Source: a virus
Taxonomy: Duplodnaviria > Heunggongvirae > Uroviricota > Caudoviricetes
Direction: 5' to 3' (one strand)
Length of the DNA: 64,000 bases
Virus record (IMG/VR): IMGVR_UViG_3300027749_005140
Coordinates: 1 to 64,000 of that record
Part shown: piece after piece, positions 29,790-61,735 of the stretch
Numbering within the stretch: the stretch's first letter is position 1
How the letters are laid out: the number at the start of each line of letters is the position of its first letter
The notes under the pieces: generated by a model
What the model saw: only the letters and a program-made list of their open reading frames with translations
Told to the model about the DNA's origin: nothing
The model's database searches: none
Made by a program: the position numbers and the translations under genes

Positions 29790-29795
29790 CAAAAT

Positions 29796-29868: not shown

Positions 29869-29875
29869 CAAAAAA

Positions 29876-29948: not shown

Positions 29949-29955
29949 CAAATAT

Positions 29956-30044: not shown

Positions 30045-30062
30045 CTAAATTCTCCCTCTAAA

Positions 30063-30135
30063 CATTGTTGGTGGATGTACCAGACTTTTAATCTGGGAAG
30101 GTGGTTTCGATTACCACAGAGGGAACTAAGTCTTT
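30063..30135 (+). tRNA. tRNA-Lys (anticodon TTT), second copy
   Basis: Near-identical (1 nt difference) to the copy at 29717..29789. Confidence 0.55.
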
Positions 30136-30195
30136 GTAACTTATTATAAAGGAGCCACTAACTTATTAATATATAAATAAAAATTATTATTATAT

Positions 30196-31233
30196 ATGAT
30201 AAGTTGTAAATTTTGTAAAAAAGTATATATAGGACGTAATAAAAATAAAGATGTTTTAATACATGAGTCCCATTGTATTCTAAATACAGATAGAGTACCA
30301 TATATATGTAATATATGTGATATGGAGTTTGATAAAAGACATTCTTTAATAGGACATAAAAGTCATTGCGGTAATTTAAAAGTTAGGAAAAAACGGATTA
30401 CAAAAGAGAAAGTAATTAAAATACACAAATGTAAATACTGTGATTCAATATTCGAAAATGGTTATAAATTGGGCGGACATGTATCACATTGTGATAGAGA
30501 TCCAGAATATGAAACTAAGAGGAGAAAAATGTGTGATAATATCTCTTTTCTTAATAAAGGAAAGAAATTATCAGATGAAACTAGAAAAAAAATATCAAAT
30601 AGTAGAAGAGAATATTTAAAAAATAATCCAGATAAAGTTCCCTATCTATTAAACCATAGTAGAAATGAATCATATCCTGAGAAATACTTTACTGATGTTT
30701 TTTTAGATAGAAATATTAGTGTAATAAAATCTTACAGAATTGGATTATATGAATTAGATTTTTGTATTTTAGATAAAAAAATAGATATAGAAATCGATGG
30801 TGGTCAACACTATTTAGATAATAAAATTATTGAAAGTGATAAAAGAAGAAATAAATATCTAGAAGATTTAGGTTGGGATATAATTAGAATAAAATGGAGT
30901 GATTATCAATTGTTGGATAAAGATTCTAAAAGAGAATTTATTGATAATATAATCTATTACATAAATGGTCTGGTAAAAACTAAACCAACATTTGAAATAT
31001 TAGATAATAAAAATTATTGTAAATGTGGTATAGAAATATACAAATGTTCTAAAATGTGTTCTAAATGTGATTCATTTAGACAAAGAAAAGTTGAAAGACC
31101 TTCATTAGAGCAAATTTTAAAAGATATAAAAGAAACAAACTATGTCTTGACCGGTAAAAAATATGGTGTTAGTGATAACACTATAAGAAAGTGGATAAGA
31201 CAATATAATGCGGATTTAGCTGAGACGGTTTAG
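30196..31233 (+). CDS. homing-endonuclease-like protein: 3x C2H2 zinc fingers + DUF559/Vsr-like PD-(D/E)xK nuclease + C-terminal HTH
   Basis: CxxC..HxxxH x3; YELDF..IDIEIDGGQHY..D.RR..L..GWDIIRIKW core; stop codon lies inside the D-loop of the following tRNA. Confidence 0.55.
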   Translation: MISCKFCKKVYIGRNKNKDVLIHESHCILNTDRVPYICNICDMEFDKRHSLIGHKSHCGNLKVRKKRITKEKVIKIHKCKYCDSIFENGYKLGGHVSHCDRDPEYETKRRKMCDNISFLNKGKKLSDETRKKISNSRREYLKNNPDKVPYLLNHSRNESYPEKYFTDVFLDRNISVIKSYRIGLYELDFCILDKKIDIEIDGGQHYLDNKIIESDKRRNKYLEDLGWDIIRIKWSDYQLLDKDSKREFIDNIIYYINGLVKTKPTFEILDNKNYCKCGIEIYKCSKMCSKCDSFRQRKVERPSLEQILKDIKETNYVLTGKKYGVSDNTIRKWIRQYNADLAETV

Positions 31234-31281
31234 CGTATGGTTGAAAGCCATAAGAGGTCAATTCGATTTTGACAATCCGCA
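31210..31281 (+). tRNA. tRNA-Phe (anticodon GAA), second gene
   Basis: Acceptor gcggatt/aatccgc, loop ttgaaag, T-arm gtcaa ttcgatt ttgac; 5' 24 nt overlap the endonuclease ORF. Confidence 0.5.
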
Positions 31282-31285
31282 CAAA

Positions 31286-31422
31286 TAGAAAGTAGCTCAA
31301 TTGGTAGAGCACGTAATCATACTTAGTCAGTCTTTCTCTAAGAAACTCTCTTAGTAGCAATGAAATAAGTTACTTCGCTCTGTTAAAGCCGTGGTTGTGG
31401 GTTCGAGTCCCACCTTTCTATC
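31286..31422 (+). tRNA. tRNA-like gene with ~65-nt internal insertion
   Basis: Perfect acceptor tagaaag/ctttcta, canonical D-arm tagctcaattggtagagc and T-arm gtggg ttcgagt cccac, but 87 nt between D- and T-arms. Confidence 0.3.
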
Positions 31423-31464
31423 AGATAAATAAAAACAAAGAATAAAATTTTAATATATAGTAAT

Positions 31465-31542
31465 ATGAAAACAATTATCACAACATCGTCAAGTTCGTCT
31501 AGTCGCTCAAGTAATTTGAGGGAGGTTCTGTTGTGCTCATAA
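31465..31542 (+). CDS. leader peptide 5 (25 aa), Ser/Arg-rich
   Basis: MKTIITTSSSSSSRSSNLREVLLCS; upstream of tRNA-Arg and three tRNA-Ser. Confidence 0.45.
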   Translation: MKTIITTSSSSSSRSSNLREVLLCS

Positions 31543-31564
31543 TTGATATAAAAAATTAGTATGA

Positions 31565-31609
31565 AACCCACAGACTTCAAAGTTTGTGGGTCTTTTGTTT
31601 TTAATTGGT
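31565..31609 (+). terminator. rho-independent terminator/attenuator 5
   Basis: aaacccacagact tcaa agtttgtgggtc + ttttgttttt. Confidence 0.65.
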
Positions 31610-31678
31610 TCCATCGTTTAACGGATAGGATAGGTCGCTACGAACGATCAGGTGGGGGTTCGATTCCCTCTGGAATCA
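31607..31678 (+). tRNA. tRNA-Arg (anticodon ACG)
   Basis: Acceptor ggttcca/tggaatc, anticodon stem ggtcg/cgatc, loop ctacgaa. Confidence 0.5.
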
Positions 31679-31687
31679 CAAATATAT

Positions 31688-38298: not shown

Positions 38299-38371
38299 CG
38301 CGGGATAGAGCAGTAGGCAGCTCGTGTGGCTCATAACCATAAGGTCGGAGGTTCGAGTCCTTCTCCCGCTA
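38299..38371 (+). tRNA. tRNA-Met/Ile2-like (anticodon CAT) with C1:U72 mismatch
   Basis: Acceptor cgcggga/tcccgct, D-arm gagcagtaggcagctc, stem tgtgg/ccata, loop ctcataa, T-arm ggagg ttcgagt ccttc. Confidence 0.55.
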
Positions 38372-38420
38372 CTAAAAGAATAAAAAATTAAAAAAGATTT
38401 GGTGGTTTAAAAACTTATCG

Positions 38421-38428
38421 TATCTTTG
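38421..38428 (+). promoter_or_regulatory. -7 promoter box TAnnTTTG of leader/tRNA module 3
   Basis: tatctttg upstream of leader ORF 3. Confidence 0.45.
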
Positions 38429-38496
38429 TACTCACAAGATGAGAGTCACATAAGTGACTAGAAGAATTAAAAACAACAATTTAAAAAATAGAAAAA

Positions 38497-38598
38497 ATGA
38501 CAACAATTACTAACATAACAATAGCTATCGAAGCCATAGGCGGGTATGAAGCGGGGTATATTATACCATCGGTCAGAAGCGTTATGTCTATAAAGTAA
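38497..38598 (+). CDS. leader peptide 3 (33 aa), Ile/Thr/Gly/Glu/Tyr/Ala-rich
   Basis: MTTITNITIAIEAIGGYEAGYIIPSVRSVMSIK; resembles thr-operon leader; codons ATA, GAA, GGC/GGG, TAT, GCN match the downstream tRNAs. Confidence 0.45.
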   Translation: MTTITNITIAIEAIGGYEAGYIIPSVRSVMSIK

Positions 38599-38627
38599 TG
38601 AGTTGAAAAAAACATTATTATATAACA

Positions 38628-38667
38628 AACCCAATCTGACTTAAAAATCAGATTGGGTTTTTTTATT
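38628..38667 (+). terminator. rho-independent terminator/attenuator 3
   Basis: aacccaatctga cttaaaaa tcagattgggtt + tttttt. Confidence 0.7.
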
Positions 38668-38682
38668 GAATTAAAAGTACAA

Positions 38683-38767
38683 GGGAGTACGCCGGAGTTG
38701 GAGAGCCGGAGCGGTCTGTAACACCGTTGGCATTACGCCTGAGTAGGTTCGAGTCCTACTACTCTCA
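38683..38767 (+). tRNA. tRNA-Tyr (anticodon GTA), class II
   Basis: Acceptor gggagta/tactctc, stem gcggt/accgt, loop ctgtaac, variable arm, T-arm gtagg ttcgagt cctac. Confidence 0.6.
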
Positions 38768-38773
38768 CAAAAT

Positions 38774-38841
38774 AAAAGTGACTATGTGCGGGTCGAAAGA
38801 CTTGAAAAGCCAACCGAAATAGTCTAACGTGGTCACTTTTT
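38774..38841 (+). other. extended imperfect hairpin flanked by A-run and T-run
   Basis: aaaagtgactat ... atagtc taacgt ggtcactttttt; not a tRNA (no T-loop). Confidence 0.3.
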
Positions 38842-38848
38842 AGAATAT

Positions 38849-38921
38849 GGTGTATTCGTCTAGTGGTAAGGATTACGCTTTTTCAAAGCGGAGGACGTCG
38901 GTTCGAATCCGACATACACTA
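38849..38921 (+). tRNA. tRNA-Glu (anticodon TTC)
   Basis: Acceptor ggtgtat/atacact, D-arm tcgtctagtggtaaggat (Glu-like), loop ttttcaa, T-arm gtcgg ttcgaat ccgac. Confidence 0.5.
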
Positions 38922-38925
38922 CAAA

Positions 38926-38987
38926 TGTAAGTAGAGCTCCGGTGACTTCTACCTAACCGGGCATTGTGCTTGAGTAGAAGACTTACA
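38926..38987 (+). other. nested hairpin element between tRNA genes
   Basis: tgtaagt..cttctac..gtagaag..acttaca nested inverted repeats. Confidence 0.25.
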
Positions 38988-38991
38988 AAAT

Positions 38992-39066
38992 GCTGCTATC
39001 GTCTAACGGTAGGACAACATCTTCTCAAGGTGTGAGATACGGGTTCGATCCCCGTTAGCAGCACCA
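38992..39066 (+). tRNA. tRNA-Glu (anticodon CTC) with encoded CCA
   Basis: Perfect acceptor gctgcta/tagcagc, loop ttctcaa, T-arm acggg ttcgatc cccgt, followed by a cca. Confidence 0.55.
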
Positions 39067-39182
39067 AACAGATACTTGAGTGCAAGCAAGTTATAGTATC
39101 AGTCGTTAGGTCCTTGCAGACAGTGAACGGTGGTCCGAATGTCATTATTCGGTGGTGGATACCAGGCAACTCCATCATATAT

Positions 39183-39254
39183 GATCCGGTCTTCTAATGG
39201 TCAGGAAGCAAGGTTTTCATCCTTGTAATCAGGGTTCGATTCCCTGTCGGATTA
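39183..39254 (+). tRNA. tRNA-like, anticodon TTC (Glu-like; G1:U72 and G7:U66 wobbles)
   Basis: Acceptor gatccgg/tcggatt, stem caagg/ccttg, loop ttttcat, T-arm caggg ttcgatt ccctg. Confidence 0.4.
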
Positions 39255-39264
39255 CAAAAAAAAT

Positions 39265-39338
39265 TGGTAAGTAGCTTAGACGGTAGAAGCATCTGTCTTA
39301 TACACAGAAGATAGTGGGTTCGATACCCACCTTACCAA
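39265..39338 (+). tRNA. tRNA-Ile (anticodon TAT)
   Basis: Acceptor tggtaag/cttacca, stem tctgt/acaga, loop cttatac, T-arm gtggg ttcgata cccac. Confidence 0.55.
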
Positions 39339-39345
39339 CAAAATC

Positions 39346-39419
39346 GCGGGAGTCGTATAATGGCTCGATTATGCTGGCTTTCCACGTCAGAGACGAGGGT
39401 TCGATTCCCTTCTCCCGCA
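39346..39419 (+). tRNA. tRNA-Gly (anticodon TCC)
   Basis: Acceptor gcgggag/ctcccgc, stem ctggc/gtcag, loop tttccac, T-arm gaggg ttcgatt ccctt. Confidence 0.55.
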
Positions 39420-39428
39420 CCGCATAAT

Positions 39429-39502
39429 GCAAATGTATATCAATTGGTAGATAGTCTCGTTGCCAACGAGAAGGCTTGCGGGTTCGAGCCCCGTCATTTG
39501 CT
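39429..39502 (+). tRNA. tRNA-Gly (anticodon GCC)
   Basis: Acceptor gcaaatg/catttgc, stem tctcg/cgaga, loop ttgccaa. Confidence 0.6.
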
Positions 39503-39600
39503 CAGTAGAAGTGGTTTAAGTTATAGAAATCTCTATATCTAAGACGTTAGATGTAAATTTTTATACACCACTTTAATTATAAAGATAGTAGTAATATAAA

Positions 39601-39700
39601 GCGTTACTTCGTATTCAAACGACTATTATAGGTTCGAATCCTATTGTCCGCACAAATAATTAAATTGCGGATATAGTGTAATGGTAGCACAGTAAAATAC
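39601..39700 (+). other. two orphan tRNA halves: a 3' half (T-arm + acceptor 3') lying upstream of a 5' half (acceptor 5' + D-arm); their acceptor strands are mutually complementary
   Basis: ...ataggttcgaatcctat tgtccgc a (39628-39652) and gcggata ta gtgtaatggtagcac (39667-39690); tgtccgc pairs perfectly with gcggata. Confidence 0.25.
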
Positions 39701-39728
39701 GCTTAATAAACTTTCTCTATCTTATTTT

Positions 39729-39800
39729 GGGGCTATCGTATAATGGCTATTACACAGGGTTTGCAACTCTGATATTCCGGATCGTCCCCGGATAGCTCCA
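39729..39800 (+). tRNA. tRNA-Ala-like (anticodon TGC) with non-canonical T-loop
   Basis: Acceptor ggggcta/tagctcc (G3:U70 present), stem caggg/ctctg, loop tttgcaa, T-arm tccgg atcgtcc ccgga. Confidence 0.45.
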
Positions 39801-39977
39801 CAAAAAATAAAAAATAGATATGAAAACTAAAGAACAGTCGCTGGACGCATTTTAGTCACAGAAGAATATAAATCTTACTGTGACGGTAATAAAACAGAAA
39901 GAATTAAAAGATCATTAGTAAAAAATGGTTCACGTAATGATAGAAAATTACAAAAATATTCTGATAAATTTAACAAA

Positions 39978-42896: not shown

Positions 42897-42898
42897 TA

Positions 42899-42930
42899 AA
42901 AAAGGAGACTAATGTCTCCTTTTTTTATTT
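42899..42930. terminator. bidirectional terminator between convergent genes
   Basis: aaaaggagactaatgtctcctttttt. Confidence 0.65.
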
Positions 42931-44352
42931 CTTATATTTAAACTCTTCCATAAATTCTACCGGTACTCCAAAGTAAAACTTACTATAAGTTTTCTTAATA
43001 TTCTTATACCAATCAGATTTGTAGATAAATATCATATACTCATAAATCATATCAATTGGCATTTCAGTATTTTCATACCAATACTTTTTAAATTCATCCG
43101 TAAGATTATCTTCTATACCAGCAAGAGGAATAGTTCTTATACTTCCTGGACTAGAGTTTCTATTTGCATCATAATCTGTGTATCCATAATAATCTGTTGA
43201 TATTGATGTTGGATTACTTGTGAAGTAAAAAGACTCACCAGGATTACTGTTTATAAGATAAACAAATGAAACCTTTTTAATACTCTCGTGTCTAAAATAG
43301 AATCTCCATTCATTTCTATGTTTTATTCTTTTGTAGTTATCAATATTCTGAAATATCGATAGATCATAAGAATCTTTAATCTCATTTACATAACTTAGAA
43401 TTATAGCTAACTTCTTATCATCAATTTTACTCAGGTGATGTGAATTATTATAAGATAGTTTATCCTTTAAATTAGTAAGATTAGTTTCTTCAAAAAACAT
43501 ACTACATACTCTTTCCATAAAATGTTCTTTAGATTCATCTTTACAAGAAAGTAAAAATGATTCAGCAGGAACACTACCTAAATAAGTTTTCTTAAAAATC
43601 TTGTTATAAGGTATGATATTCTGATTAGCACCTAAGAAATCATCTAATAAAATTTCCTCGTCATTATACAACATAGTTTTACTATTAGTAATATTAGTAG
43701 TAAAATGAACAAGTATTAAATTCTGACTTACATTCTCAAAGTTACTTTTATCAATGTCTTTTATAGAAACAATATTCAAATGGTTATTTAAGAAAGTATA
43801 AAATGACTTAAATGCTTTAGTTGGGTTTTGAAAGATTGTTTTTGGTAGAATATAGAAAACATCTGCTTCTTTATTCACATTTTTAATAACATCAAGTGTT
43901 TTTACTATAAAGAATATACATTCTTCTTTTACACCATCAATACTATATAATCTTTTCAATCTATCAATCTCTGGCTTTCTATCTTTCAAAGATAATGCTG
44001 GAGTTCTATAAGGTGGATTACCAACTAATAAAATTCTATCACAATCTTCGATGAAGTCTTTATCTAAATCAAAATCATAAATATTCTGATTTATCAATTG
44101 ACAATTATCTATTGGTGTAAACTCTGAGAAAACTTCATCATCTATCTCAACTGCAACAATCTTATTTTTATAAACTTTTCTAAATGATTTGACAAAATTA
44201 CCAGAACCAAAAGATGGTTCTATAAAAACTGTTTTATCAGTAATCTCAACAGGTAGTTCTGAAATAATTTTATCAGTACCTTCTATCTTAGTATTATACT
44301 GACCGAGTATTTCTACTTTTGTATAATTATCTTTATTTGTTGCTTTTCTCAT
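42925..44352 (-). CDS. N6-adenine DNA methyltransferase (gamma-class, motif I then NPPY)
   Basis: EPSFGSGNF (motif I) followed by LLVGNPPYRT (motif IV). Confidence 0.6.
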   Translation of the reverse strand: MRKATNKDNYTKVEILGQYNTKIEGTDKIISELPVEITDKTVFIEPSFGSGNFVKSFRKVYKNKIVAVEIDDEVFSEFTPIDNCQLINQNIYDFDLDKDFIEDCDRILLVGNPPYRTPALSLKDRKPEIDRLKRLYSIDGVKEECIFFIVKTLDVIKNVNKEADVFYILPKTIFQNPTKAFKSFYTFLNNHLNIVSIKDIDKSNFENVSQNLILVHFTTNITNSKTMLYNDEEILLDDFLGANQNIIPYNKIFKKTYLGSVPAESFLLSCKDESKEHFMERVCSMFFEETNLTNLKDKLSYNNSHHLSKIDDKKLAIILSYVNEIKDSYDLSIFQNIDNYKRIKHRNEWRFYFRHESIKKVSFVYLINSNPGESFYFTSNPTSISTDYYGYTDYDANRNSSPGSIRTIPLAGIEDNLTDEFKKYWYENTEMPIDMIYEYMIFIYKSDWYKNIKKTYSKFYFGVPVEFMEEFKYKK

Positions 44353-44429
44353 TATAAAAATTGTTTATTATTATATGAGTATATAGAATTAAAGTTTCAA
44401 CTTTACTTTGTATTATCAATATAATTCAT

Positions 44430-44437
44430 TATCTTTG
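44430..44437 (+). promoter_or_regulatory. -7 promoter box TAnnTTTG
   Basis: tatctttg 21 nt upstream of the ATG at 44458. Confidence 0.4.
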
Positions 44438-44457
44438 TTATCTAAATATAAAATAAT

Positions 44458-44895
44458 ATGGAAGATAATGTTAGTGTAGTTTATGATATTTTTTCAGAAT
44501 CATCTTGGGAAAATATCTATCAATTTGAAAAGGATATTAGAAGAATAACTGATAAGAAATTCTTACTTGGTTTATTAATGGAGTTTGTTAGAGCAGATCT
44601 TAATTATGATGTAGATAAAGAATACATTAGTGAACTAATGCTTTCTATTGATGATAACATTGATAATCATTTTGATGCAAGTGATTATTATATTGATAGT
44701 ATACGTAAGGATGTTAGATCAATAATGAATGATTTTTTATATCAAGGAGAAGGTGATTTAAGTGAGAATGAAGAAATGATAACTTGGATTAAAAGTCTTT
44801 CAAAAGAAGAAATTGAAATACTTGAGAGCTACTATGTTAGTAGTGAAATGTATGAGACAATAGGATTTATAATGGACATACATAAAAAAAAATAA
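44458..44895 (+). CDS. hypothetical acidic protein
   Basis: ORF. Confidence 0.3.
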   Translation: MEDNVSVVYDIFSESSWENIYQFEKDIRRITDKKFLLGLLMEFVRADLNYDVDKEYISELMLSIDDNIDNHFDASDYYIDSIRKDVRSIMNDFLYQGEGDLSENEEMITWIKSLSKEEIEILESYYVSSEMYETIGFIMDIHKKK

Positions 44896-44899
44896 AAAT

Positions 44900-47065
44900 A
44901 TGAAAGATATATACCTAATATCAACAAAAACACTACAATATCCTTCAACAATTCATAGAAGTGAATCACAAAAAGAGGATATTGAGCGTGGTTGTATTAT
45001 AAAAGTTGGTGAGGCCATAGATGCAGAAGTTAGGGTTGAGACACTTGATGGAACATTTGTTTTTGAAAAACCAATAATATTGAAAGTTTGGAAAGACTCG
45101 CCTATGACCGATAAGGAAATACACATAGAACTTGAAAAAAGAGGATTTCCTAAATATAGAGAAGATAGAGATAGAGAGTTCTTTGAATGGCAAAGTCAAG
45201 AACAAGCCATCAGAGAAATAAATAATATAATCTATGGAACAAAAAAACTAAAAACATACTCTGCTAGACCAGAACAATCCGAAATGGTAGATGGTGTATG
45301 TAAACTATTTAATATACAATTAAATAGAAAAGATAAAAGAGATTTATCACGTAAATGTAAAGGTCGTGCACTTATTAACGCAAAAATGAGAGCAGGTAAA
45401 TGTCATATATCATATAGAATAATCAAAAAAATGAATTTTAAAAGAATTCTAGTTTTAACATATAAACCAAACGGTGTTGCAGAAAGCTGGGAAGATGATA
45501 TTGATCACGTTGATTTTAAAGACTTTATCTTTAAAAAAGCAATAGATTTATCAGATGTTAAATTTGAGGAAGGTGATAAAGTACAGATAATCTTCTCATC
45601 ATTCCAAGATGCACTTGGTGAAGTAAGAGATCAAGATGGTAATATTATTAAACAAAATAAAGATAAATGGAATAATATCTTTGGACAAAAAATCGACTTG
45701 ATTATCAAAGATGAGGATCATTATGGGTATGAAACTGAAAGATCAACTAACTTTTTATCTAAGTTAGATTATGATTTTGAATTGTCTCTATCAGGAACCC
45801 CATTTAAAGCAATTTTAGATGGTAAATATGAAAAAGATGAGGTTTTTACCTGGACATATTTACAAGAGCAAGTAAAAAGAAATGAAGAGAAAGAAAAAGG
45901 ATGGAACACACAGGTTTATAGAGCACTTCCAGAATTTGAGGTATTTTTATGTAAATATGATAATGATATTATTAAAAAATTTTTAAAATATTATACAGAG
46001 GAGGAAAAAGTAACTAACTTTAAATTATTCTCAAATGAGAGAATTGTGTATGATTTTTTAACTTGGATTAAAATGGACCCAAGTATGAATAATCTTATTA
46101 CAAACCATATGTTTTGGTACTTACCACAAGTTATAAACTGTGATACTATTGAAAGTATTATTAAAATACATCCATATTGGAAAGATTATAGTATAATAAA
46201 CGCATCTGGTAATAGTGTTAGAGATTTAGAAGATACTAAAAATAATATTTTTAATAAAAAAGCAAATTCTATAACACTCTCTTGTGGAAGATGGAATACA
46301 GGTTCAACAGTTCCACAATGGAATTCTGTTTGGATGTTAGATGATGGATACTCTGCAGAAAATTGGTTTCAGACAGGTATGAGATCAGGTAGTCCTTTTA
46401 TTAGTAGAGAAGGAGAGGTTTTAAAAGAGAAAGTACATATCGTCGATTTTAATTCTGATAGAATGTTGAAATGTTATATTGAATACTCAACAGTTATATC
46501 TAAATATACTGGTTATGAAGCATCGGAATTTAGCACCGAAATGCTAAAGTGTATGCCCATTTTCAGTGTTGATGGAGCAACTATCAATAAAATTGACAGT
46601 GATGATCTACTTGAGCACTTTAATAGATTTTTAACCGATTCATTTGGTTCACTATCTCTTTTAGATAGAGATAAATTTGACAGTGATATAAAAGATATAC
46701 TTGAGGATATAAATGGAAATTTATCAAAGGAAGAATTATTATCAATGAATAAATCATCAAAAGGTAGAGGTAAAGATAATCAAAGAACAAAAGTTAGTGA
46801 AGGTGTCAAAGGTGAAGTTGAAAAAATTGAAGATTATGTTATAAAAGCAAGGTTGATTACTAATAGATTTAAAAACTTCCTATTTGTGATTGATAAGATT
46901 TCAAACATAGATGATATTTTTAAATATAAAGAAGAGTTTAAAACTCAAACAGGAGTTGAAGCAGAAAAATTCAAAATACTTTTAGATAAAGGATTCATTT
47001 TGAAAGAGAAAATAAATGATAGTATTGATTTATTCAATATTAACAACGAATACTTATATAACTAA
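44900..47065 (+). CDS. SF2 (SNF2/ResIII-like) helicase-family protein
   Basis: Motif Ia KPNGVAESW, motif II DLIIKDEDH (DExH), motif III LSGTPF, motif VI-like FQTGMRSGSP; Walker A degenerate (RAGKCH). Confidence 0.45.
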   Translation: MKDIYLISTKTLQYPSTIHRSESQKEDIERGCIIKVGEAIDAEVRVETLDGTFVFEKPIILKVWKDSPMTDKEIHIELEKRGFPKYREDRDREFFEWQSQEQAIREINNIIYGTKKLKTYSARPEQSEMVDGVCKLFNIQLNRKDKRDLSRKCKGRALINAKMRAGKCHISYRIIKKMNFKRILVLTYKPNGVAESWEDDIDHVDFKDFIFKKAIDLSDVKFEEGDKVQIIFSSFQDALGEVRDQDGNIIKQNKDKWNNIFGQKIDLIIKDEDHYGYETERSTNFLSKLDYDFELSLSGTPFKAILDGKYEKDEVFTWTYLQEQVKRNEEKEKGWNTQVYRALPEFEVFLCKYDNDIIKKFLKYYTEEEKVTNFKLFSNERIVYDFLTWIKMDPSMNNLITNHMFWYLPQVINCDTIESIIKIHPYWKDYSIINASGNSVRDLEDTKNNIFNKKANSITLSCGRWNTGSTVPQWNSVWMLDDGYSAENWFQTGMRSGSPFISREGEVLKEKVHIVDFNSDRMLKCYIEYSTVISKYTGYEASEFSTEMLKCMPIFSVDGATINKIDSDDLLEHFNRFLTDSFGSLSLLDRDKFDSDIKDILEDINGNLSKEELLSMNKSSKGRGKDNQRTKVSEGVKGEVEKIEDYVIKARLITNRFKNFLFVIDKISNIDDIFKYKEEFKTQTGVEAEKFKILLDKGFILKEKINDSIDLFNINNEYLYN

Positions 47066-48421
47066 ATGATAACAAAGGAACAACAATTAAGAATTGATAT
47101 ACTTTTTAAACAGATTTCTAATTTAGAAAGCTCTGATTCTTCTACAATGACAGAATTATCTGTTTGTAGAGATTTAATATCTCAAAAATTTGATTTTAAT
47201 TTATCGTATATGGATATATGTTGTGGTAAAGGAACAATTTTACTTTGTCTATATCTTGAATATTGGAAAAAATTAGATATACCTGATATTGAGGAAAAGA
47301 ATAAATATATCATTGATAGAATATGTGGAGTGGATATCTCAAAATCTCAAGTAGATATTACAAAAAGTACACTTAAAAAGATACAAAAAATACTGAAAAT
47401 ACACAACATTTTAGTGCCTTTTGTATATAATTATAACATACTTGACTGTGATAAAAAAGAAATAAATGACTTGAAAAGAAAATTTGATGTCGTAATAACA
47501 AATCCTCCATATAATTCGGAAAGAGGTGATAACAATCAATCTGTGGATATTTATCCAGATTTTGTAGATAAAGCATTTGAGTTGGCTGATAGATATGTAA
47601 TAATGATTACAAAATCTAATTGGATGAATAAACCATCTATGAAAGATTTTAGAGAGAAAATGATTAACAAATACAATGTTGATAAAATTGTTCATTATCC
47701 TGAAAATCCTTTTAAGGGAACACTAATATCAGGTGGTGTTTCATATTTTGTTATTGATAACAAAAACACAAAAGAAACATTTGAATTAAATGGTGTTGTT
47801 TATGATAGGAAAGTTGCCTTAGATTTTTTACCTTATGAACTTAATAAAGATGAATTATCAGTTCTAAGTAAACTACTAAAAATAGATAAAATAAACATGG
47901 ATAATTTTAGAACTCAAGGATATTATACTATAAAAACAAATGACAACAGACTAATAAGTGATAACTCTGATGAAGTTGTTGAGTGTCATGTATCAGAACA
48001 AAAGGGTAAAATAAAATATTTCCCAAGAGTATTATTCAATACTAAGATTAGTAATGATTTACTAAATCCTAAAATATTTACAACATCTGCATATGGCTCA
48101 AACCCATTTTCATTAGGTAGAATACTAAAATCTGATGGAAACCAGATATGTAGTGAAAGTTTAGTATCATGGTCATTTAATACTGTTAATGATAGAGATA
48201 TTTTTCATGATTATATGAATACTAAACTTTTCAGAGTTGCTGTTTCCTTTATAAAAAACAAAAAACATGTTAGTAAAAATACATTTTCTCTAATTCCACA
48301 AATTGATTTCTCAAAATTAGAGAAAATAGATGATGAAAATATTTACAAATACTTAAACTTAACAGAAGAAGATATTCAAACTATTGAAGAAAGATGTGAT
48401 AGACTAAAATTACTTAGGTAA
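47066..48421 (+). CDS. N6-adenine DNA methyltransferase (gamma-class)
   Basis: CCGKGTILLCL (motif I) and VITNPPYNSE (motif IV); C-terminal ~300 aa putative target-recognition domain. Confidence 0.6.
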   Translation: MITKEQQLRIDILFKQISNLESSDSSTMTELSVCRDLISQKFDFNLSYMDICCGKGTILLCLYLEYWKKLDIPDIEEKNKYIIDRICGVDISKSQVDITKSTLKKIQKILKIHNILVPFVYNYNILDCDKKEINDLKRKFDVVITNPPYNSERGDNNQSVDIYPDFVDKAFELADRYVIMITKSNWMNKPSMKDFREKMINKYNVDKIVHYPENPFKGTLISGGVSYFVIDNKNTKETFELNGVVYDRKVALDFLPYELNKDELSVLSKLLKIDKINMDNFRTQGYYTIKTNDNRLISDNSDEVVECHVSEQKGKIKYFPRVLFNTKISNDLLNPKIFTTSAYGSNPFSLGRILKSDGNQICSESLVSWSFNTVNDRDIFHDYMNTKLFRVAVSFIKNKKHVSKNTFSLIPQIDFSKLEKIDDENIYKYLNLTEEDIQTIEERCDRLKLLR

Positions 48422-48442
48422 TTATAAAAATAATAAGAAAAT

Positions 48443-48847
48443 GTGTCAAAAATTAAAGGAATTGAGAAAATCAAAGATGAAATAAATAAACTTACTAAAT
48501 ATAGAAAAGAACATGCCGACACATTTGGTGAAGTATTTACAGAGTTCTATCTTATAGAAGAACACGTATCTAATATTGATAGTAAATTATTTGAAGATCC
48601 TAACTCAACATTTCTTGATCCATGTTCCGGATTTGGTTCATATTCTATTATTTTAATAGAAAGACTGATGGAAGGACTTAAAGATTGGGAACCAAATATT
48701 GAAAAAAGATATAAACATATACTTGAAAACCAAATATTTATGGTAGAGATACAAAAAGAATCTTGTGAGGTAATTGAAAGATTATTTAATCCAAAAGGTA
48801 AATATAAATTAAATTTATATAACCAATCATTTTTGAACTTTGAATAA
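48443..48847 (+). pseudogene. truncated N6A-methyltransferase N-terminal fragment (motif I only)
   Basis: GEVFTE...FLDPCSGFGSY matches the N-terminus/motif I of TaqI/Eco57I-like MTases, but no NPPY follows before the stop. Confidence 0.35.
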
Positions 48848-48861
48848 TTTAAAATTATTTG

Positions 48862-48869
48862 TACCTTTG
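48862..48869 (+). promoter_or_regulatory. -7 promoter box TAnnTTTG
   Basis: tacctttg 16 nt upstream of the ATG at 48885. Confidence 0.4.
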
Positions 48870-48884
48870 ATAAAAATTAAAATT

Positions 48885-49193
48885 ATGTTTAAGAATAGTG
48901 ATAACTTATTTGTTGGTAAGTATTTTGGAGAAAATGTAAATGGTTTCATAAAAGGTAATACTTATACCTTCCGTGCACTAATGTATAATAAAGGTGTATC
49001 TATAAATACATCACCTGGTAGATCACATAAAATAATGGAGTTTGATAGTATGAGAGACCTATTACTCACTTTCAAGATAACTGATATACCAAATTATGTC
49101 ACAGATGATGTTGCTCTAGAATATGATAGAGGACTCGATCTATTAAAATCGGATTATAGAGAATATCAAATAAATCGTATTCTAAATATTTAA
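48885..49193 (+). CDS. hypothetical protein (start revised)
   Basis: First Met after the promoter box. Confidence 0.3.
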   Translation: MFKNSDNLFVGKYFGENVNGFIKGNTYTFRALMYNKGVSINTSPGRSHKIMEFDSMRDLLLTFKITDIPNYVTDDVALEYDRGLDLLKSDYREYQINRILNI

Positions 49194-51701: not shown

Positions 51702-52655
51702 ATGAAAGTAACACAACATATAGACGCAGCCAAGAAACCATTGTTTTCCTTTGAAATTTTACCACCTTTAAAAGGACAAAACATACAATCTATATTTGAT
51801 GGTATTGATCCACTAATGGAGTTCGATCCACCATTTATTGATGTAACTTATCATCGTGAAGAATATGAGTATAAAGAATTACCTAATGGGTTATTTCAAA
51901 AGAAAGTTGTAAAGAAACGTCCTGGCACAGTTGGTATTTGTTCTGCTATTCAAAACAAGTATAATATTGATGCTATTCCACATGTTCTTTGTGGTGGATT
52001 TACTAAAGAAGATACTGAGAATCTATTGATTGACTTAGATTTCTTAGGAATTGATAATGTAGTAGCACTTCGTGGTGATTCTTTAATTACAGAAACATAT
52101 TTTAGTGCGGAAAAGGATGGAAATAATTATGCATCCGAATTAGTTACCCAAATTAGTAATCTGAATAAAGGAATCTATTTAGATGAAAGTTTAAAAAATG
52201 TTGCCAAGACAAATTTTTGTATTGGTGTGGCAGGTTACCCAGAGAAACACATGGAAGCTCCTAGTTTAGATAGTGACATTCACTTTTTGAAAGAGAAAAT
52301 AAAAAATGGAGCAGAGTATATTATTACTCAGATGTTTTTTGATAATAAGAAGTTCTTTGAGTTTGTTGATAAATGTAGAGCGGCAGGAATCACAGTCCCA
52401 ATTATTCCAGGATTAAAACCAATTTCAACTAAGAGACAACTTAATCTAATCTCACATAGATTTAGTATTGATTTTCCAGATGATTTGATTATGGCAGTAG
52501 TTAAAGCTCCCGATAATAATGCAGTAAAACAAATTGGTATTGAATGGTGTACTGAACAAAGCAAGGAATTAGTTAAAGTAGGTATTCCACTTTTACATTA
52601 TTATTCGATGGGGAAAGCAGAAAATATTAAAGCTATTGCAAAAGAAATTTTCTAA
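51702..52655 (+). CDS. metF: 5,10-methylenetetrahydrofolate reductase
   Basis: Colinear with MetF: FSFEILPP, IDVTYH, IPHVLCGG, VVALRGD, VAGYPEKH, IITQMFFD, IPIIPGLKPIS, HYYSMGKAE. Confidence 0.8.
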   Translation: MKVTQHIDAAKKPLFSFEILPPLKGQNIQSIFDGIDPLMEFDPPFIDVTYHREEYEYKELPNGLFQKKVVKKRPGTVGICSAIQNKYNIDAIPHVLCGGFTKEDTENLLIDLDFLGIDNVVALRGDSLITETYFSAEKDGNNYASELVTQISNLNKGIYLDESLKNVAKTNFCIGVAGYPEKHMEAPSLDSDIHFLKEKIKNGAEYIITQMFFDNKKFFEFVDKCRAAGITVPIIPGLKPISTKRQLNLISHRFSIDFPDDLIMAVVKAPDNNAVKQIGIEWCTEQSKELVKVGIPLLHYYSMGKAENIKAIAKEIF

Positions 52656-52656
52656 A

Positions 52657-52682
52657 AAATCCTCCAATCGGAGGATTTTTCA
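52657..52682 (+). terminator. rho-independent terminator
   Basis: aatcctcc aatc ggaggatt + tttt. Confidence 0.65.
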
Positions 52683-52690
52683 TATCTTTG
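52683..52690 (+). promoter_or_regulatory. -7 promoter box TAnnTTTG (probable leaderless transcript)
   Basis: tatctttg only 4 nt upstream of the ATG at 52695. Confidence 0.4.
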
Positions 52691-52694
52691 TACT

Positions 52695-53078
52695 ATGAAA
52701 ATTAAACTACAAGACGTTAAAGAAGATATTGAAGATATAATCGATGGTGTTCTCGTAGAACTAATTGATGATGATTTTGAGATTAGAAAAGTCTTTGTAG
52801 ACTCTAAAAATTATCCATACAGTAATGGTAGACATCTTATAGATGTTTACATAAACAAAGAAAATAATAAAGGATTTAAGATAAGTGAAATACAATCAAA
52901 AGTTTTAACACTTAATGACTTTATGAGACGTAGATATGATGCAACTGTTAGTTACCAAACAATGGATAGTAAAAGTAAAAGACAACTTCATGGAACTTTT
53001 CCACTTTTCAAATATAATCAAATAAGAAAATTTAAAATAATTATAACCTTTTTAGAGGAAACTACTAACATTCGATAA
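52695..53078 (+). CDS. hypothetical protein
   Basis: ORF. Confidence 0.3.
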   Translation: MKIKLQDVKEDIEDIIDGVLVELIDDDFEIRKVFVDSKNYPYSNGRHLIDVYINKENNKGFKISEIQSKVLTLNDFMRRRYDATVSYQTMDSKSKRQLHGTFPLFKYNQIRKFKIIITFLEETTNIR

Positions 53079-53128
53079 AAATACGATATAATAATTGTAA
53101 CCTTGTACTATAAAATAAAACATATATT

Positions 53129-54124
53129 ATGATAATCAAATCAGAAATAAATCCGAAAGACTTTGAGGTCGGTACAATCATTGGCCGTTTCCAAGTAAAC
53201 AAACTACACGATGGTCACAGATCATTAATCAACTACGTATTAGATAACCATAAAAAAGTAATCATACTTTTAGGTGTATCAAGAGTTCAAAATACTCGCA
53301 AAAATCCACTAGACTTTGCTTCTCGTAAAGCAATGATTCAAGCAGAGTTTCCTTCTGTTATGATACTACCAATTCAAGATCAAAGATATAACGAAAAATG
53401 GTCTCAACAAGTTGATTCTATTATCCCAATTCCTTTCGGTGAGAAAAAAACAGTAATCTACGGAAGTAGAGACTCTTTCATTCCTTACTACTCTGGTAAA
53501 TTTCCAGTTATCGAATTAGAAGAAAGTGTTACTTATAATGGTACAAACATCCGTGAAGAAGTTGCAAAAGAAACATTAGACTCTGACGACTTTAGAGCAG
53601 GTGTTATTTACTCTTCTTTTAATCATAGACCTACAACCTTCCCAACAGTTGATATTATTGCACACGATAATGAAGGTAATATCCTTTTAGGTAGAAAACC
53701 TAATGAGAAATTATTTAGATTTGTTGGTGGTTTTGTTGATACTTCAGATAGTTCATTTGAAGCAGCAGCTTTAAGAGAACTTAATGAAGAAACTGGTGGG
53801 AACTTAGTAGTAAATAAAGAATTAAAATATATTACTTCTCAAAAAGTAAATGATTGGAGATATAAAGGTGAAGACTCTGGTATTATGACTACATTATATT
53901 TGGCAACAAGACACTTTGGATTTGCTAAAGCTTCTGACGACATAGCCGAAGTAAAATGGATACCTGCTAATAAATTTAGTAACTATGATGGTATCAGAAC
54001 TGGAATTGTTCCGGAACACAGAGAGTTGATGAAAACATTTATTGATAAAGTTTATGATCAAAATCTTATGCCAATTGCAGAAAGATTAGAAGAAAGAACT
54101 AATGTAACTTACACCATTGAGTAA
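53129..54124 (+). CDS. nadM: bifunctional NMN adenylyltransferase / Nudix hydrolase (NadM-Nudix)
   Basis: N-terminal GRFQVNKLHDGH (nucleotidyltransferase H-x-G-H) plus C-terminal Nudix box GGFVDTSDSSFEAAALRELNEETG. Confidence 0.8.
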   Translation: MIIKSEINPKDFEVGTIIGRFQVNKLHDGHRSLINYVLDNHKKVIILLGVSRVQNTRKNPLDFASRKAMIQAEFPSVMILPIQDQRYNEKWSQQVDSIIPIPFGEKKTVIYGSRDSFIPYYSGKFPVIELEESVTYNGTNIREEVAKETLDSDDFRAGVIYSSFNHRPTTFPTVDIIAHDNEGNILLGRKPNEKLFRFVGGFVDTSDSSFEAAALRELNEETGGNLVVNKELKYITSQKVNDWRYKGEDSGIMTTLYLATRHFGFAKASDDIAEVKWIPANKFSNYDGIRTGIVPEHRELMKTFIDKVYDQNLMPIAERLEERTNVTYTIE

Positions 54125-54459
54125 TGAACAATCCAGTTATAAAAATAGCAAATGGTTTAATGATGGTTCAATCTTATCCATTTAATTGGATAAAAGATCA
54201 AGCCGCGGGTACCTCAGGTATTTCAACACCATGTTATTACATATTTTTAGGTGATATGTCTGGTGGTCCTACATGTGTTTATAGAGAGGAAAAAAACGAA
54301 TTATCTATTTCAGACTTAAAGTTTAAAGTCGAAAGTATCGAAGAAGCAGGTGAAATAGTTCTTAAACTTACACAAGGTATGGGAAAAAGTTTAGAAGGAA
54401 CTGTACATGAATCTGCTGTAGACATTAGAGATAAAAAGATAGAAAAAATATTAAATTAA
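54124..54459 (+). CDS. hypothetical protein
   Basis: ORF. Confidence 0.3.
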   Translation: MNNPVIKIANGLMMVQSYPFNWIKDQAAGTSGISTPCYYIFLGDMSGGPTCVYREEKNELSISDLKFKVESIEEAGEIVLKLTQGMGKSLEGTVHESAVDIRDKKIEKILN

Positions 54460-54464
54460 ATATT

Positions 54465-56057
54465 ATGAGTTTACAAAGACAAATTACTCGAAAATTAGAA
54501 AGAGTCATTGCTGATAAAGATTGGACTTCTTTAGAAGGTATTCAAAAATACCTAACAAAAATTATTACAAAACCAGACAATTTAATTCTTTGTTCTGATG
54601 CTTACAAATACTCACACCATAAATTCTATGGTGATGAAATGACTAAGATGATTTCTTATATGGAATCTCGTGGTGGTAAATTCTCAGAAACTTTATTCTA
54701 TGGTTTACAAATCATTATCAAACAATACTTAGAAGGTATCGCTATTACCAAAGAAGAAGTAGATGAAGCAAATGATTACTTAGCTTCTAAACTAGGTGTG
54801 TTCGGTAGAGAAGATGTATTTGATCGTTCTAAGTTTGATTATATCGTTGATAAATATGATGGTAAACTTCCTATCAGTATTAAAGCTGTACCAGAAGGAA
54901 CCGTTGTAAATACAAAAAATGTACTTTTCATTATTGAAAGTTTAGATGAAAAATGTGCTTGGTTGACAAACTTCTTAGAAAGTATCTTACTTCAAGTTTG
55001 GTATCCAATTACTGTTGCAACCCTTTCAAGAGAAGTTAGAAAAATTGTAACTAATTCATTTTTAGATTGTACTTCTTATGATGATAAAACAATCAATTTC
55101 TTAGTTGATTTTGTTTTAAATGATTTTGGTTTCAGAGGTGTATCATCTGTACAATCAGCTAAAATTGGTGGGTCCGCACATCTTGTCAACTTCTTAGGTT
55201 CAGACACTGTAATCGCTTCTAAATTGATTAGAGACGTATATAATACTGAACGAATCTATGGGTTATCAATTCCTGCAACCGAACACTCTATTATGACGCT
55301 TAAAGGTAAAGAAGGAGAGTTAGAACTAATGACGAGAGTGTTAAAAACATTCCCTACTGGATTAGTAGCGTGTGTATCTGATTCATATAACATCTTTAGA
55401 GCTTGTTCTCAATACTGGGGAACTGAGTTGAGAGATTTAGTTCTTTCAAGACCTGCAACACCTGGAAATCAATTAGTTATTAGACCTGACTCTGGCCACG
55501 TTTTAAGAACATTGAAAGAGATTTTTGATATATTATTTGACAAGTTTGGATATACGGTAAATGAAAAAGGTTACAAAGTACTTCCACCACAAGTTAGAGT
55601 AATTCAAGGTGACGGTGTCAACCTAGAATCAATTGGTGAAATCTATACAATGTTAAAATCAGAAGGTATTTCTCCAGAGAACTTAGCATTGGGTATGGGT
55701 GGTAAATTATTACAAGCGGATATAAACCGTGATACAAATAACTTTGCAACTAAAGCTTGTTTCGCAGTGGTTGATGGTCAAGAAAGAAATGTAGTTAAAT
55801 CTCCTACAGAAATGGATGCAGATGGTAACATTATGAAATCTTTCAAAAAATCTAAACAAGGTCGTTTGAAACTTGTTAAGAATGATGATGGTACTTACAG
55901 AACTGTTACTTCAATGGATGCAGACTTTGATACTGTTAAAGACGAGTTAGTTGAAGTATTTAGAATGGGAGAAATTACTAAAGAGTGGAACTTTGATGAG
56001 ATTAGACAAAGAGCTGCAGTTTTAGTAGAACAAGAAACAGAAGAATTGATAGCATAA
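54465..56057 (+). CDS. nadV: nicotinamide phosphoribosyltransferase
   Basis: LCSDAYKYSHHKFYG and GMGGKLLQ..NRDT motifs, ~530 aa. Confidence 0.85.
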   Translation: MSLQRQITRKLERVIADKDWTSLEGIQKYLTKIITKPDNLILCSDAYKYSHHKFYGDEMTKMISYMESRGGKFSETLFYGLQIIIKQYLEGIAITKEEVDEANDYLASKLGVFGREDVFDRSKFDYIVDKYDGKLPISIKAVPEGTVVNTKNVLFIIESLDEKCAWLTNFLESILLQVWYPITVATLSREVRKIVTNSFLDCTSYDDKTINFLVDFVLNDFGFRGVSSVQSAKIGGSAHLVNFLGSDTVIASKLIRDVYNTERIYGLSIPATEHSIMTLKGKEGELELMTRVLKTFPTGLVACVSDSYNIFRACSQYWGTELRDLVLSRPATPGNQLVIRPDSGHVLRTLKEIFDILFDKFGYTVNEKGYKVLPPQVRVIQGDGVNLESIGEIYTMLKSEGISPENLALGMGGKLLQADINRDTNNFATKACFAVVDGQERNVVKSPTEMDADGNIMKSFKKSKQGRLKLVKNDDGTYRTVTSMDADFDTVKDELVEVFRMGEITKEWNFDEIRQRAAVLVEQETEELIA

Positions 56058-61492: not shown

Positions 61493-61565
61493 GGCTCTAT
61501 GATGTAATGGATTAGCATATAAATCTTCTAAATTTATCGTATAGGTTCGAATCCTATTAGAGTCA
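61493..61565 (+). tRNA. tRNA-Arg (anticodon TCT)
   Basis: Acceptor ggctcta/tagagtc, D-stem atgt/gcat, stem taaat/attta, loop cttctaa, T-arm atagg ttcgaat cctat. Confidence 0.6.
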
Positions 61566-61571
61566 CAAAAA

Positions 61572-61645
61572 GTCTGGGTGGTGAAACTGGAAAACACAAC
61601 AAGTTTAAGCCTTGTAAGCTGCGGGTTCGACTCCCGTCCCAGATA
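61572..61645 (+). tRNA. tRNA-Leu-like (anticodon TAA) with class-I architecture (short variable loop)
   Basis: Acceptor gtctggg/cccagat, stem acaag/cttgt, loop tttaagc, T-arm gcggg ttcgact cccgt. Confidence 0.45.
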
Positions 61646-61651
61646 CAAATT

Positions 61652-61733: not shown

Positions 61734-61735
61734 CA

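Follow-up and report, generated by a model that had tools for sequence, protein, structure and literature searches.

Comparison with described systems

Restriction enzymes of Type ISP, such as LlaGI and LlaBIII (PDB 4xqk, 5ffj), are single polypeptides in which an Mrr-type PD-(D/E)xK nuclease domain, a superfamily 2 (SF2) translocase, a gamma-type methyltransferase and a C-terminal recognition domain follow one another in this order. The bacterial DnmA(YeeA)-YeeB-YeeC cluster comprises an MmeI-like methyltransferase, an SF2 helicase and a T5orf172 protein, and is a putative restriction or defence unit that is active in Vibrio, where deletion of the homologues is reported to increase phage sensitivity, and that shows no restriction in Bacillus subtilis (PMC9973331). 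Natural two-chain DNA methyltransferases in the literature searched are cytosine-C5 enzymes only, namely M.AquI and M.EcoHK31I (PMC3404938); the same literature, the scope of which did not include REBASE, holds no description of an amino-methyltransferase with its S-adenosylmethionine (SAM)-binding half as a separate protein, which is not proof of absence. In a stretch of 64,000 nucleotides of a virus of the Caudoviricetes (positions 1 to 64,000 of IMG/VR record IMGVR_UViG_3300027749_005140, hereafter the window), the plus strand at positions 44900-48847 carries what appears to be a phage-borne module of three genes, designated H, M and S, of which S is, for the family in general, quite likely to act as a subunit in trans. 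On sequence and predicted structure it is on balance probable that the three genes form one module, with H and M resembling a Type ISP enzyme and S belonging to a two-chain methyltransferase together with a shortened form of M (M-short, as distinct from the full-length M-long). The features of the module are as follows.

44900-47065, plus strand: gene H, a DExH protein of SF2, 721 amino acids (aa), with RAGKC P-loop, DEDH box, SGT and QxxxR
44900-45244, plus strand: N-terminal domain of H (aa 1-115), T5orf172/MUG113-like, of the GIY-YIG clan, assigned from the Pfam matches of homologues
45245-47065, plus strand: SF2 core and helical C-terminal domain (aa ~560-721) of H, with RAGKC at 164-168, DEDH at 271-274, SGT at 298-300 and Q491/R495
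47066-48421, plus strand: gene M, a 451-aa gamma-type N6-adenine methyltransferase with DICCGKGT and NPPY
47066-47470, plus strand: N-terminal SAM-binding half of M-long (aa 1-135), with DICCGKGT, GVDIS (motif II) and NILD (motif III); the N6_Mtase alignment covers aa 47-233
47471-47473, plus strand: TTG codon of Leu136, candidate internal start, aligned with the start codons of M-short genes
47471-48421, plus strand: core of M, from NPPY (aa 146-149, nucleotides 47501-47512) to motif VIII and the C-terminal target-recognition region
48443-48847, plus strand: gene S, a 134-aa open reading frame (ORF) with a GTG start, with GEVFTE and DPCSGFGS and without motif IV
48443-48847, plus strand: motifs of S, namely X (GEVFTE), I (D59-PCS-G63-F-G65), II (E102) and III (N124..FL), the protein ending just before motif IV

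The module shares with Type ISP enzymes the succession of a nuclease-type domain, an SF2 translocase, a gamma-type methyltransferase and a C-terminal recognition domain. H has the core of an SF2 translocase of double-stranded DNA (ResIII match, similarity to 4xqk, invariant motifs I, II, III and VI); LlaBIII is the best structural match of H and is also among the fold matches of S; and relatives in which H and M are fused into a single chain show the Type ISP domain order. The window differs in that H and M are separate ORFs, so that the parts lie on two or three chains rather than one; in that the nuclease-type domain is T5orf172/GIY-YIG-like instead of Mrr-type, no Mrr profile matching H; and in the presence of an additional stand-alone SAM-binding half and of a phage as the carrier. 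The likeness to DnmA-YeeB-YeeC is one of domain types: the same three linked domain types occur in the window, but there the T5orf172-like domain and the helicase are fused and placed upstream of the methyltransferase, which is much shorter, and for S no counterpart is described. H with M is a new arrangement of known kinds, and the pair of S and M-short is the less expected part.

Like M.AquI and M.EcoHK31I, this pair would spread one methyltransferase fold over two separately encoded, associating polypeptides. Those are cytosine-C5 enzymes split within or after the variable region, with motifs IX and X in the small chain, whereas here an amino-methyltransferase is split between beta3 and beta4, and the gene of the small chain, which bears the SAM-binding motifs, follows that of the large one. 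The gene order of M-short followed by S corresponds to motif IV, target recognition domain (TRD) and motif I, as in amino-methyltransferases of class beta (PMC7544214); unlike these, S and M-short are not joined, and their sequences place them in the gamma-type Eco57I family.

The small protein S

S has no Pfam match, so that alone it fails to enter the Eco57I family by profile, but it matches phrog_4376 (7e-12), the profile of which is itself 134 positions long. In a search of 5.8 billion proteins, the S family comprised 60 clusters at 99% to 40% identity, nearly all of 130-160 aa and spread over dozens of phage contigs. Residues D59, G63, G65 and E102 are invariant in the alignments and N124 is nearly so. 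They are the acidic and glycine positions in motif I, the acidic position in motif II and the motif III position, which make up the SAM pocket of gamma-type methyltransferases; the motif scheme applied here is taken from PMC7544214. Only the remotest matches of S (P0057 and P0060) continue beyond it, into "F-DIIMGNPPY", and S therefore corresponds to the N-terminal half of full-length enzymes, stopping exactly before beta4 and motif IV. An initial annotation of the window, made from the sequence alone, had correctly recognized that this ORF is homologous to the motif X/I region at the N-terminus of such enzymes.

The same annotation took the ORF for a truncated third methyltransferase copy, probably a pseudogene recording recent duplication and decay, which is contradicted by its constant length, by its substitution pattern and by the relatives that possess M-short. 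Codon comparison of the window with locus L011, both of which have a full-length M, gave a ratio of nonsynonymous to synonymous substitution rates (dN/dS) of 0.04 for S, and comparison with other lineages gave 0.08-0.16, with saturated dS. Identity between the window and L011 is 85% for S, 78% for H and 69% for M; S is the best-conserved gene of the module. Relaxed selection, variable truncation, and frameshifts or stops in relatives, by which a pseudogene would be recognized, were not found for S. Its similarity to the N-half of the neighbouring M is only remote (32% identity over 60 residues, E=5e-5; 4e-4 with a hidden Markov model (HMM) of S), and S is therefore no recent duplicate of that half. 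An AlphaFold2 (AF2) model built from an alignment of 24 rows (pLDDT 86) has a half-Rossmann fold, helices being followed by beta1-alpha-beta2-alpha-beta3, and its fold matches are the N-terminal SAM-binding parts of CamA, Type I HsdM, PglX, LlaBIII/LlaGI, BsaXI and DrdV. As judged from its sequence and model, S is a conserved stand-alone SAM-binding half-domain and no dead gene.

M and S lie in the same frame with TAA codons at 48419, 48425, 48431 and 48434 between them; these four in-frame stops rule out a joining of M to S by read-through or frameshift, dispose of the notion that the 134-aa ORF is a frameshift artefact, and make M and S separate polypeptides. An extension of S into the downstream 117-aa ORF (48840-49193) was also rejected, as that ORF has no methyltransferase motif, and in L011, the only relative checked in this respect, the gene downstream of S is different from that in the window. 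A further motif-IV-first ORF that might be a partner of S was looked for in the window and not found.

The 21-nucleotide spacer between M and S contains, on the minus strand at 48421-48449, a perfect 12/12 sigma-70 consensus (TTGACA, 17 nucleotides, TATAAT), which overlaps the start codon of S and the transcript of which would be antisense to the 3' end of M. A promoter scan of this AT-rich DNA gave 58 sites where 59 were expected, and the element may be due to chance.

Two-chain methyltransferases in relatives

Loci of relatives were collected from IMG/VR and JGI metagenomes by means of S alignments, and their ORFs were classed with purpose-built HMMs. Three contexts of the S domain were found: it forms the N-half of single-chain enzymes of 410-590 aa; it lies at residues ~900-1300 of proteins of 1150-1850 aa, with NPPY after it; or it is a stand-alone ORF, at 70 loci. 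Wherever the flank was available and scoreable, an Eco57I-type gene lies directly 5' of the stand-alone S on the same strand, with the exception of the decayed locus L113. This upstream gene takes two forms: M-long, of 397-492 aa, with NPPY at residue ~112-187 and often with an H gene ahead of it; and M-short, of 289-318 aa, which starts 8-14 codons before NPPY (L006/L007, L012/L104, L014, L016/L121/L123, L108, L115, L124 and L175). The N-terminus of M-short reads "MKKFTCVITNPPY" in L006/L007, "MKRKFSCVITNPPY" in L012/L104 and "METQWPDKFDIVIANPPY" in L016/L121/L123. In-frame stops are found a few codons 5' of the M-short starts, and no significant relic of an N-half was detected in the 1.5 kb 5' of M-short genes, only weak, non-significant traces being seen 5' of the M-short of L108.

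A profile was built from 14 single-chain relatives and has 451 positions, with motif IV at 147; on it, S occupies 8-131/137 and M-short occupies 138/140-441/445, so that S and M-short tile one enzyme without gap or overlap. The break falls between beta3 and beta4, the junction that is a topological switch point of the methyltransferase fold (PMC7544214). M-short retains NPPY, which would be pointless without a SAM-binding half, suggesting that this half is supplied by S; and since S is encoded after M-short, the layout cannot have been created by a frameshift or a sequencing error. The same two-ORF tiling recurs in at least six lineages. On this sequence evidence, S and M-short are in these relatives a naturally split methyltransferase whose genes present motif IV first, then the TRD and then motif I; for the window itself, we infer the pairing by analogy with them.

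A search with the core of M among 1.84 billion representatives yielded 1695 relatives, and about 17 of the best 150 of these are of the M-short type (300-345 aa, matching from residue 2-5). Five of the M-short representatives were inspected, and four adjoin an S-like ORF: L175 has a strong S downstream of M-short, L176 and L178 have S-like ORFs upstream of it, and L177 has, together with an H gene, a possibly frameshifted S-like ORF. The split is therefore widespread and not confined to one clade.

Some loci contain arrays: L124 (~2880-5402) has an M-long of 418 aa, an M-short of 289 aa and an S of 138 aa; L178 (481-4255) has an S-like ORF of 211 aa, a full-length M of 413 aa and two M-short ORFs of 314 and at least 293 aa; and L002 has an M-short of 277 aa, an ORF of 256 aa, an S of 191 aa and a fusion of H with M. 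Such arrays hint at a sharing of one S by several catalytic and recognition chains. The array of L002 is part of a methyltransferase island in a 484-kb phage (LR756508.1, 271058-287369), which contains a 273-aa NPPF enzyme, the 277-aa M-short, S, the 1255-aa fusion of H with M and two DPPY enzymes; on visual inspection, an intein-like insert seems to interrupt the first DPPY enzyme (12379-14232, 617 aa).

Combinations of M-long with S, of M-long with M-short and S, and of M-short with S look like the intermediate stages, arising by duplication and truncation, that the circular-permutation model proposes for the evolution of methyltransferases (PMC7544214, citing Jeltsch 1999). A single-chain permuted fusion, in which M-short is joined to S, was not found among the loci. 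The only related case, the ORF at L138 (750-1213), starts with 'MKFDIVVVNPPF' (beta4 and motif IV), followed by a basic linker of ~50 aa and a complete S domain (GEVYTP...DPCAGVGNF...), without a catalytic core or TRD between them; the contig stops inside this ORF, which might be permuted in miniature or have arisen by deletion. In L019-L089 (many of them IMGVR GVMAG contigs), proteins of 1300-1850 aa are common in which the S domain lies at ~900-1300 and is followed by NPPY and a TRD; in several, the N-terminal part is an H-like translocase region. Type ISP-like enzymes in a single chain seem to be frequent on contigs of giant-virus metagenome-assembled genomes.

The methyltransferase M and its candidate internal start

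M matches Eco57I (68 bits against a cut-off of 25.3, 1.4e-18), N6_Mtase (29.3 bits against a cut-off of 20.4) and UPF0020, and has the single-chain motif order, with motif I at aa ~50, NPPY at 146 and then the TRD. Its N-half is a divergent paralogue of S according to sequence comparison, and has a dN/dS of 0.145 against L011, indicating purifying selection. Its core, which covers positions 138-441 of the tiling profile, is 54-82% identical to the M-short proteins of relatives.

At the codon of M that aligns with the M-short start, L012 and L006 have ATG, L014 has TTG and L115 has GTG; in L014, this TTG is the only start-capable codon between an in-frame stop and NPPY. Within the M-long clade of the window, all 13 full-length orthologues (65-95% identity) and L114 have TTG as the corresponding codon, that of Leu136, although TTG makes up only 20% of the leucine codons of these genes. 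At the other 17 columns with invariant leucine, 16 are polymorphic in codon and one is TTA throughout; and among 170 invariant degenerate columns, 30 have a single codon, which is a preferred, A/T-ending one in 29, the sole exception being TTG136. That the only fixed non-preferred codon is TTG136 points to selection on the codon itself. The raw contrast for a start-capable codon ahead of motif IV, 27 of 27 against 32 of 88, ignores relatedness and is too favourable to the idea. The simplest explanation of the fixed codon would be initiation at TTG136, giving an M-short form (aa 136-451) that needs S; this is a tentative proposal, the probability of which we place a little short of even. McrB-L/McrB-S (PMC12707154) is a precedent for a restriction-system gene whose internal start yields a second product, shortened at its N-terminus, with the differences that McrB belongs to another protein family and that the internal start proposed here is deduced from codon conservation alone. 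In L114 (290-1675), an M-long orthologue has NPAY in place of NPPY and retains the TTG boundary codon.

The translocase H

The helicase assignment of the initial annotation was borne out by a ResIII match (4e-8, above the cut-off) to the 721-aa protein, and homologues of H at 96-25% identity carry PF04851 (ResIII). The SF2 motifs R164-x-G-K167, D271-E-x-H274, S298-G-T300 and Q491/R495 are invariant across homologues. At the N-terminus of the homologues, PF10544 (T5orf172) is found in 13 of 29 and PF13455 (MUG113) in 12 of 29, both of the GIY-YIG clan, and the window H shares the conserved residues Y5, K35-x-G37, R45, D71, H75 and E93-x-F95. The AF2 model of H (pLDDT 78) has a beta/alpha N-terminal domain, and its best match by Foldseek is LlaBIII (4xqk, 2.9e-12), followed by XPB, SNF2-type remodellers, SauUSI, HsdR of EcoR124I and ZorD, all of which are movers along double-stranded DNA. 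From sequence and model, H would be a T5orf172/GIY-YIG-clan domain joined to an SF2 translocase of double-stranded DNA, with cutting of DNA by this domain only putative.

The only PADLOC match of H is REase_MTase_IIG (1.9e-15); an H profile gave no match among the sequences of solved structures, and an NCBIfam scan gave generic methyltransferase matches only, all below threshold. The analogies drawn in the initial annotation to DarB and to DISARM or BREX, unlike its domain calls, found no support. A tblastn search with H against 50,697 phage records gave 11 matches, none of them to a P1-type phage, and domain order and size differ from those of P1 DarB. No Brx or Drm profile matches H, the neighbouring genes have no defence profile, and the matches of M to PglX models are confined to the generic methyltransferase domain (aa ~133-237).

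The order of H and then M is found in the clade of the window, in L009/L127/L135 and in the P0255 contigs (H of 697 aa, M of 452 aa, S of 140 aa). Cyanophage ACG-2014f has S (134 aa) first, then H (691 aa) and M (337 aa). Fusions of H with M occur among distant homologues (P0129, P0131, P0132, the 1255-aa protein of L002 in the huge phage LR756508, and the 1151-aa protein of L152).

Function of the module and alternative explanations

The most likely role of the module would be methylation of the phage's own DNA at an asymmetric site. S would pair in trans with a half extending from motif IV to the C-terminus, giving a two-chain methyltransferase; the window M, which keeps its own N-half, may also yield the TTG136 short form that requires S, so that one specificity would exist in two forms, a self-sufficient M and a heterodimer of M-short with S. 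H and M may be parts of an enzyme similar to Type ISP or DnmA-YeeB-YeeC, on separate chains in the window and on one chain in some relatives, in which H would contribute translocation driven by ATP and possibly the cutting of host or rival DNA that is unmethylated. That the module is competent for restriction is possible, if somewhat doubtful, and the suggestion of the initial annotation that the pairing of a methyltransferase with a helicase hints at restriction or anti-restriction biology was a fair one.

Several points weigh against this interpretation. The window H has no Pfam match for the T5orf172 domain, and the residue after its P-loop lysine is cysteine, not serine or threonine. M should be self-sufficient by its motifs, so that S would not be strictly needed in the window. 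In L180/L181, a remoter lineage with H, M-long and S, no start-capable codon is found before NPPY, so that internal initiation is not a general reason for keeping S; some of the S-less single-chain relatives also have a methionine near the boundary, which weakens the count given above; and in the ATG clades the boundary codon may be kept simply because the amino acid is conserved. At L113 (2246-5798), H is frameshifted and M is reduced to its last ~123 residues beside an intact S, with a second T5orf172-like fragment after it, and on the short contig of L179 no S was found with M-short. DnmA-YeeB-YeeC of B. subtilis shows no restriction (PMC9973331), and the functional statements made here are inferred from sequence, predicted structure and gene neighbourhood.

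Among other accounts of S, the one in which it is a functionless, decaying remnant of a recently duplicated third methyltransferase agrees with the absence of motif IV and everything downstream of it, with the homology of S to the N-terminal part of the full-length P0057 and P0060, and with the presence in the window of an M that already has its own N-half. It is hardly credible in view of a length that is constant over 99-40% identity, a dN/dS of 0.04-0.16 at saturated dS, invariant cofactor-binding residues in the most conserved gene of the module, a distance from the neighbouring N-half that excludes a recent duplicate, and genomes with M-short in which S is the sole SAM-binding half. S might instead be functional without being a subunit of M, as a sensor or sequesterer of SAM or as a dominant-negative mimic that poisons Eco57I/PglX-type enzymes of the host, its linkage to M being historical; this would suit its retention beside a self-sufficient M-long (window, L011, L180) and beside the broken M of L113, its conservation above that of M, and the likeness of its fold to the corresponding region in PglX and in Type ISP enzymes. 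We regard this as quite improbable, because an Eco57I-type gene adjoins S at nearly all scoreable loci, the boundary of S fits that of M-short exactly, the NPPY of M-short is sensible only with a supplied SAM-binding half, and half a Rossmann sheet with an exposed beta1 edge, as modelled, would be unlikely to be stable as a free protein. A less drastic account, in which M-long alone works in the window, there is no internal start, and S is a redundant spare kept through recurrent loss of the N-half or through exchange between S and the N-half, is unlikely. L180/L181, with M-long and S and no internal start codon, the purifying selection on the N-half of M, and the weak, non-significant N-half traces upstream of the L108 M-short speak for it, but a purely redundant gene should not show a dN/dS of 0.04 at saturated dS, and TTG136 is the only fixed non-preferred codon among the 170 invariant degenerate columns.

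A different alternative concerns H rather than S: the module may serve modification only, as an anti-restriction device in which the translocase of H aids processive methylation and the T5orf172-like domain binds DNA and does not cut it. T5orf172 was first described as a DNA-binding domain (PMC9973331), the second tyrosine of GIY-YIG is a lysine in the T5orf172-like domain, pairs of M-short and S occur in phages without H, the B. subtilis cluster is non-restricting (PMC9973331), and orphan methyltransferases are common in phages (PMC7824862). Nevertheless, Y5, R45, H75 and E93 are conserved in this domain, restriction enzymes are the best matches both in structure and by profile, the single-chain fusions have the Type ISP domain order, and deletion of the Vibrio homologues reportedly raised phage sensitivity (PMC9973331); we consider modification alone somewhat unlikely.

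Implications

The broadest form of the proposal, that two-chain adenine methyltransferases are widespread in phages, with a small, highly conserved S, an exchangeable catalytic and recognition subunit and a permuted gene order, that in the lineage of the window one gene gives both a self-sufficient enzyme and, from a conserved internal TTG, an S-dependent short form, that the loci with M-long and S, with M-long, M-short and S, and with M-short and S are living intermediates of permutation, and that the set linked to H is a new multi-chain relative of Type ISP enzymes, is as a whole somewhat less likely than not. If S and the motif-IV-first proteins do assemble, they would be a natural amino-methyltransferase split at the beta3/beta4 switch point and would exemplify in nature the intermediates that the circular-permutation model assumes; they would suggest that phages swap recognition subunits in modular fashion against one shared cofactor subunit, and could serve as ready-made components of split-methyltransferase tools. 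Phage ORFs that pass for a short "truncated methylase" (phrog_4376) or for an "N-terminally truncated" Eco57I protein would then probably be working partners and not debris, which is a warning for annotation. The set of a T5orf172-translocase protein and a methyltransferase would extend Type ISP-like enzymes to another nuclease-type domain and to phage genomes.

Neighbouring genes and genomic context

The genes adjoining the module, on the side of H, are as follows.

42898-42925, no strand: terminator-like GC hairpin with A and T runs on its flanks, between a convergent 259-aa ORF (plus strand) and the 475-aa gene (minus strand)
42925-44352, minus strand: 475-aa gamma-type N6-adenine methyltransferase, with FGSGNF (motif I), NPPY (motif IV) at aa 112 and a long C-terminal region
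44353-44457: spacer of 105 bp between the divergent units
44458-44895, plus strand: 145-aa ORF just 5' of the H gene, not mentioned in the initial annotation

All the ORFs named in the initial annotation are present where it placed them, the divergent arrangement around the 105-bp spacer was borne out, and its assignment of two gamma-type N6-adenine methyltransferases and an SF2 DExH protein is upheld by profiles and motifs, in contrast to its reading of S as a pseudogene and its named analogies. It had also counted the minus-strand methyltransferase as a member of the cluster. Comparison of neighbourhoods, as it had proposed, shows that the plus-strand order H-M-S recurs in several clades and that the 475-aa gene is not conserved with it, being absent from the module neighbourhood of L011 and bounded by the terminator-like hairpin (a 12-bp stem with 4 GC pairs and a T tail), which would mark it as a transcription unit of its own. 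The "cluster" is two juxtaposed units, not one divergent operon system.

The 475-aa protein (METHYLTRANSFERASE) has only a weak match to RrnaAD (29.5 bits, cut-off 24). Its homologues fall into more than 216 clusters (445-560 aa, 40-97% identity, on contigs of up to 614 kb), several of which carry PF07669 (Eco57I) or PF02384 (N6_Mtase), and it has the single-chain order of motif I, motif IV (NPPY at 112) and TRD; no match was found among deposited phages. By its motifs it is an intact, independent orphan enzyme outside the conserved module. The 145-aa ORF has no significant family match in profile searches and was found again only in the near-identical contigs L004 and L005.

A DNA-level search of the region against deposited phages gave no match, and the context was therefore drawn from protein-level searches. 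The window is AT-rich and contains 29 tRNA genes and genes for a tyrosyl-tRNA synthetase, an NAD-dependent ligase, NAMPT, MTHFR and virion or tail-spike-like proteins, which identifies it as part of a large phage genome; relatives are found on freshwater and activated-sludge contigs of up to 167 kb. The tRNA genes form three arrays (29717-31679, 38299-39801 and 61493-63347), which include tRNA-Ile(TAT) and four tRNA-Leu species, and the tyrosyl-tRNA synthetase gene (27242-28498) lies near them; this load of tRNA and synthetase genes is typical of huge phages. A metabolic run at 51702-56057 consists of MTHFR (51702-52655), a cytidylyltransferase-like and NUDIX protein (53129-54124) and NAMPT (54465-56057), and looks like a phage NAD salvage set beside a folate enzyme. 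A 632-aa protein with an SPFH/Band-7 domain (2423-4321, 1.3e-25) is unusual in a phage genome.

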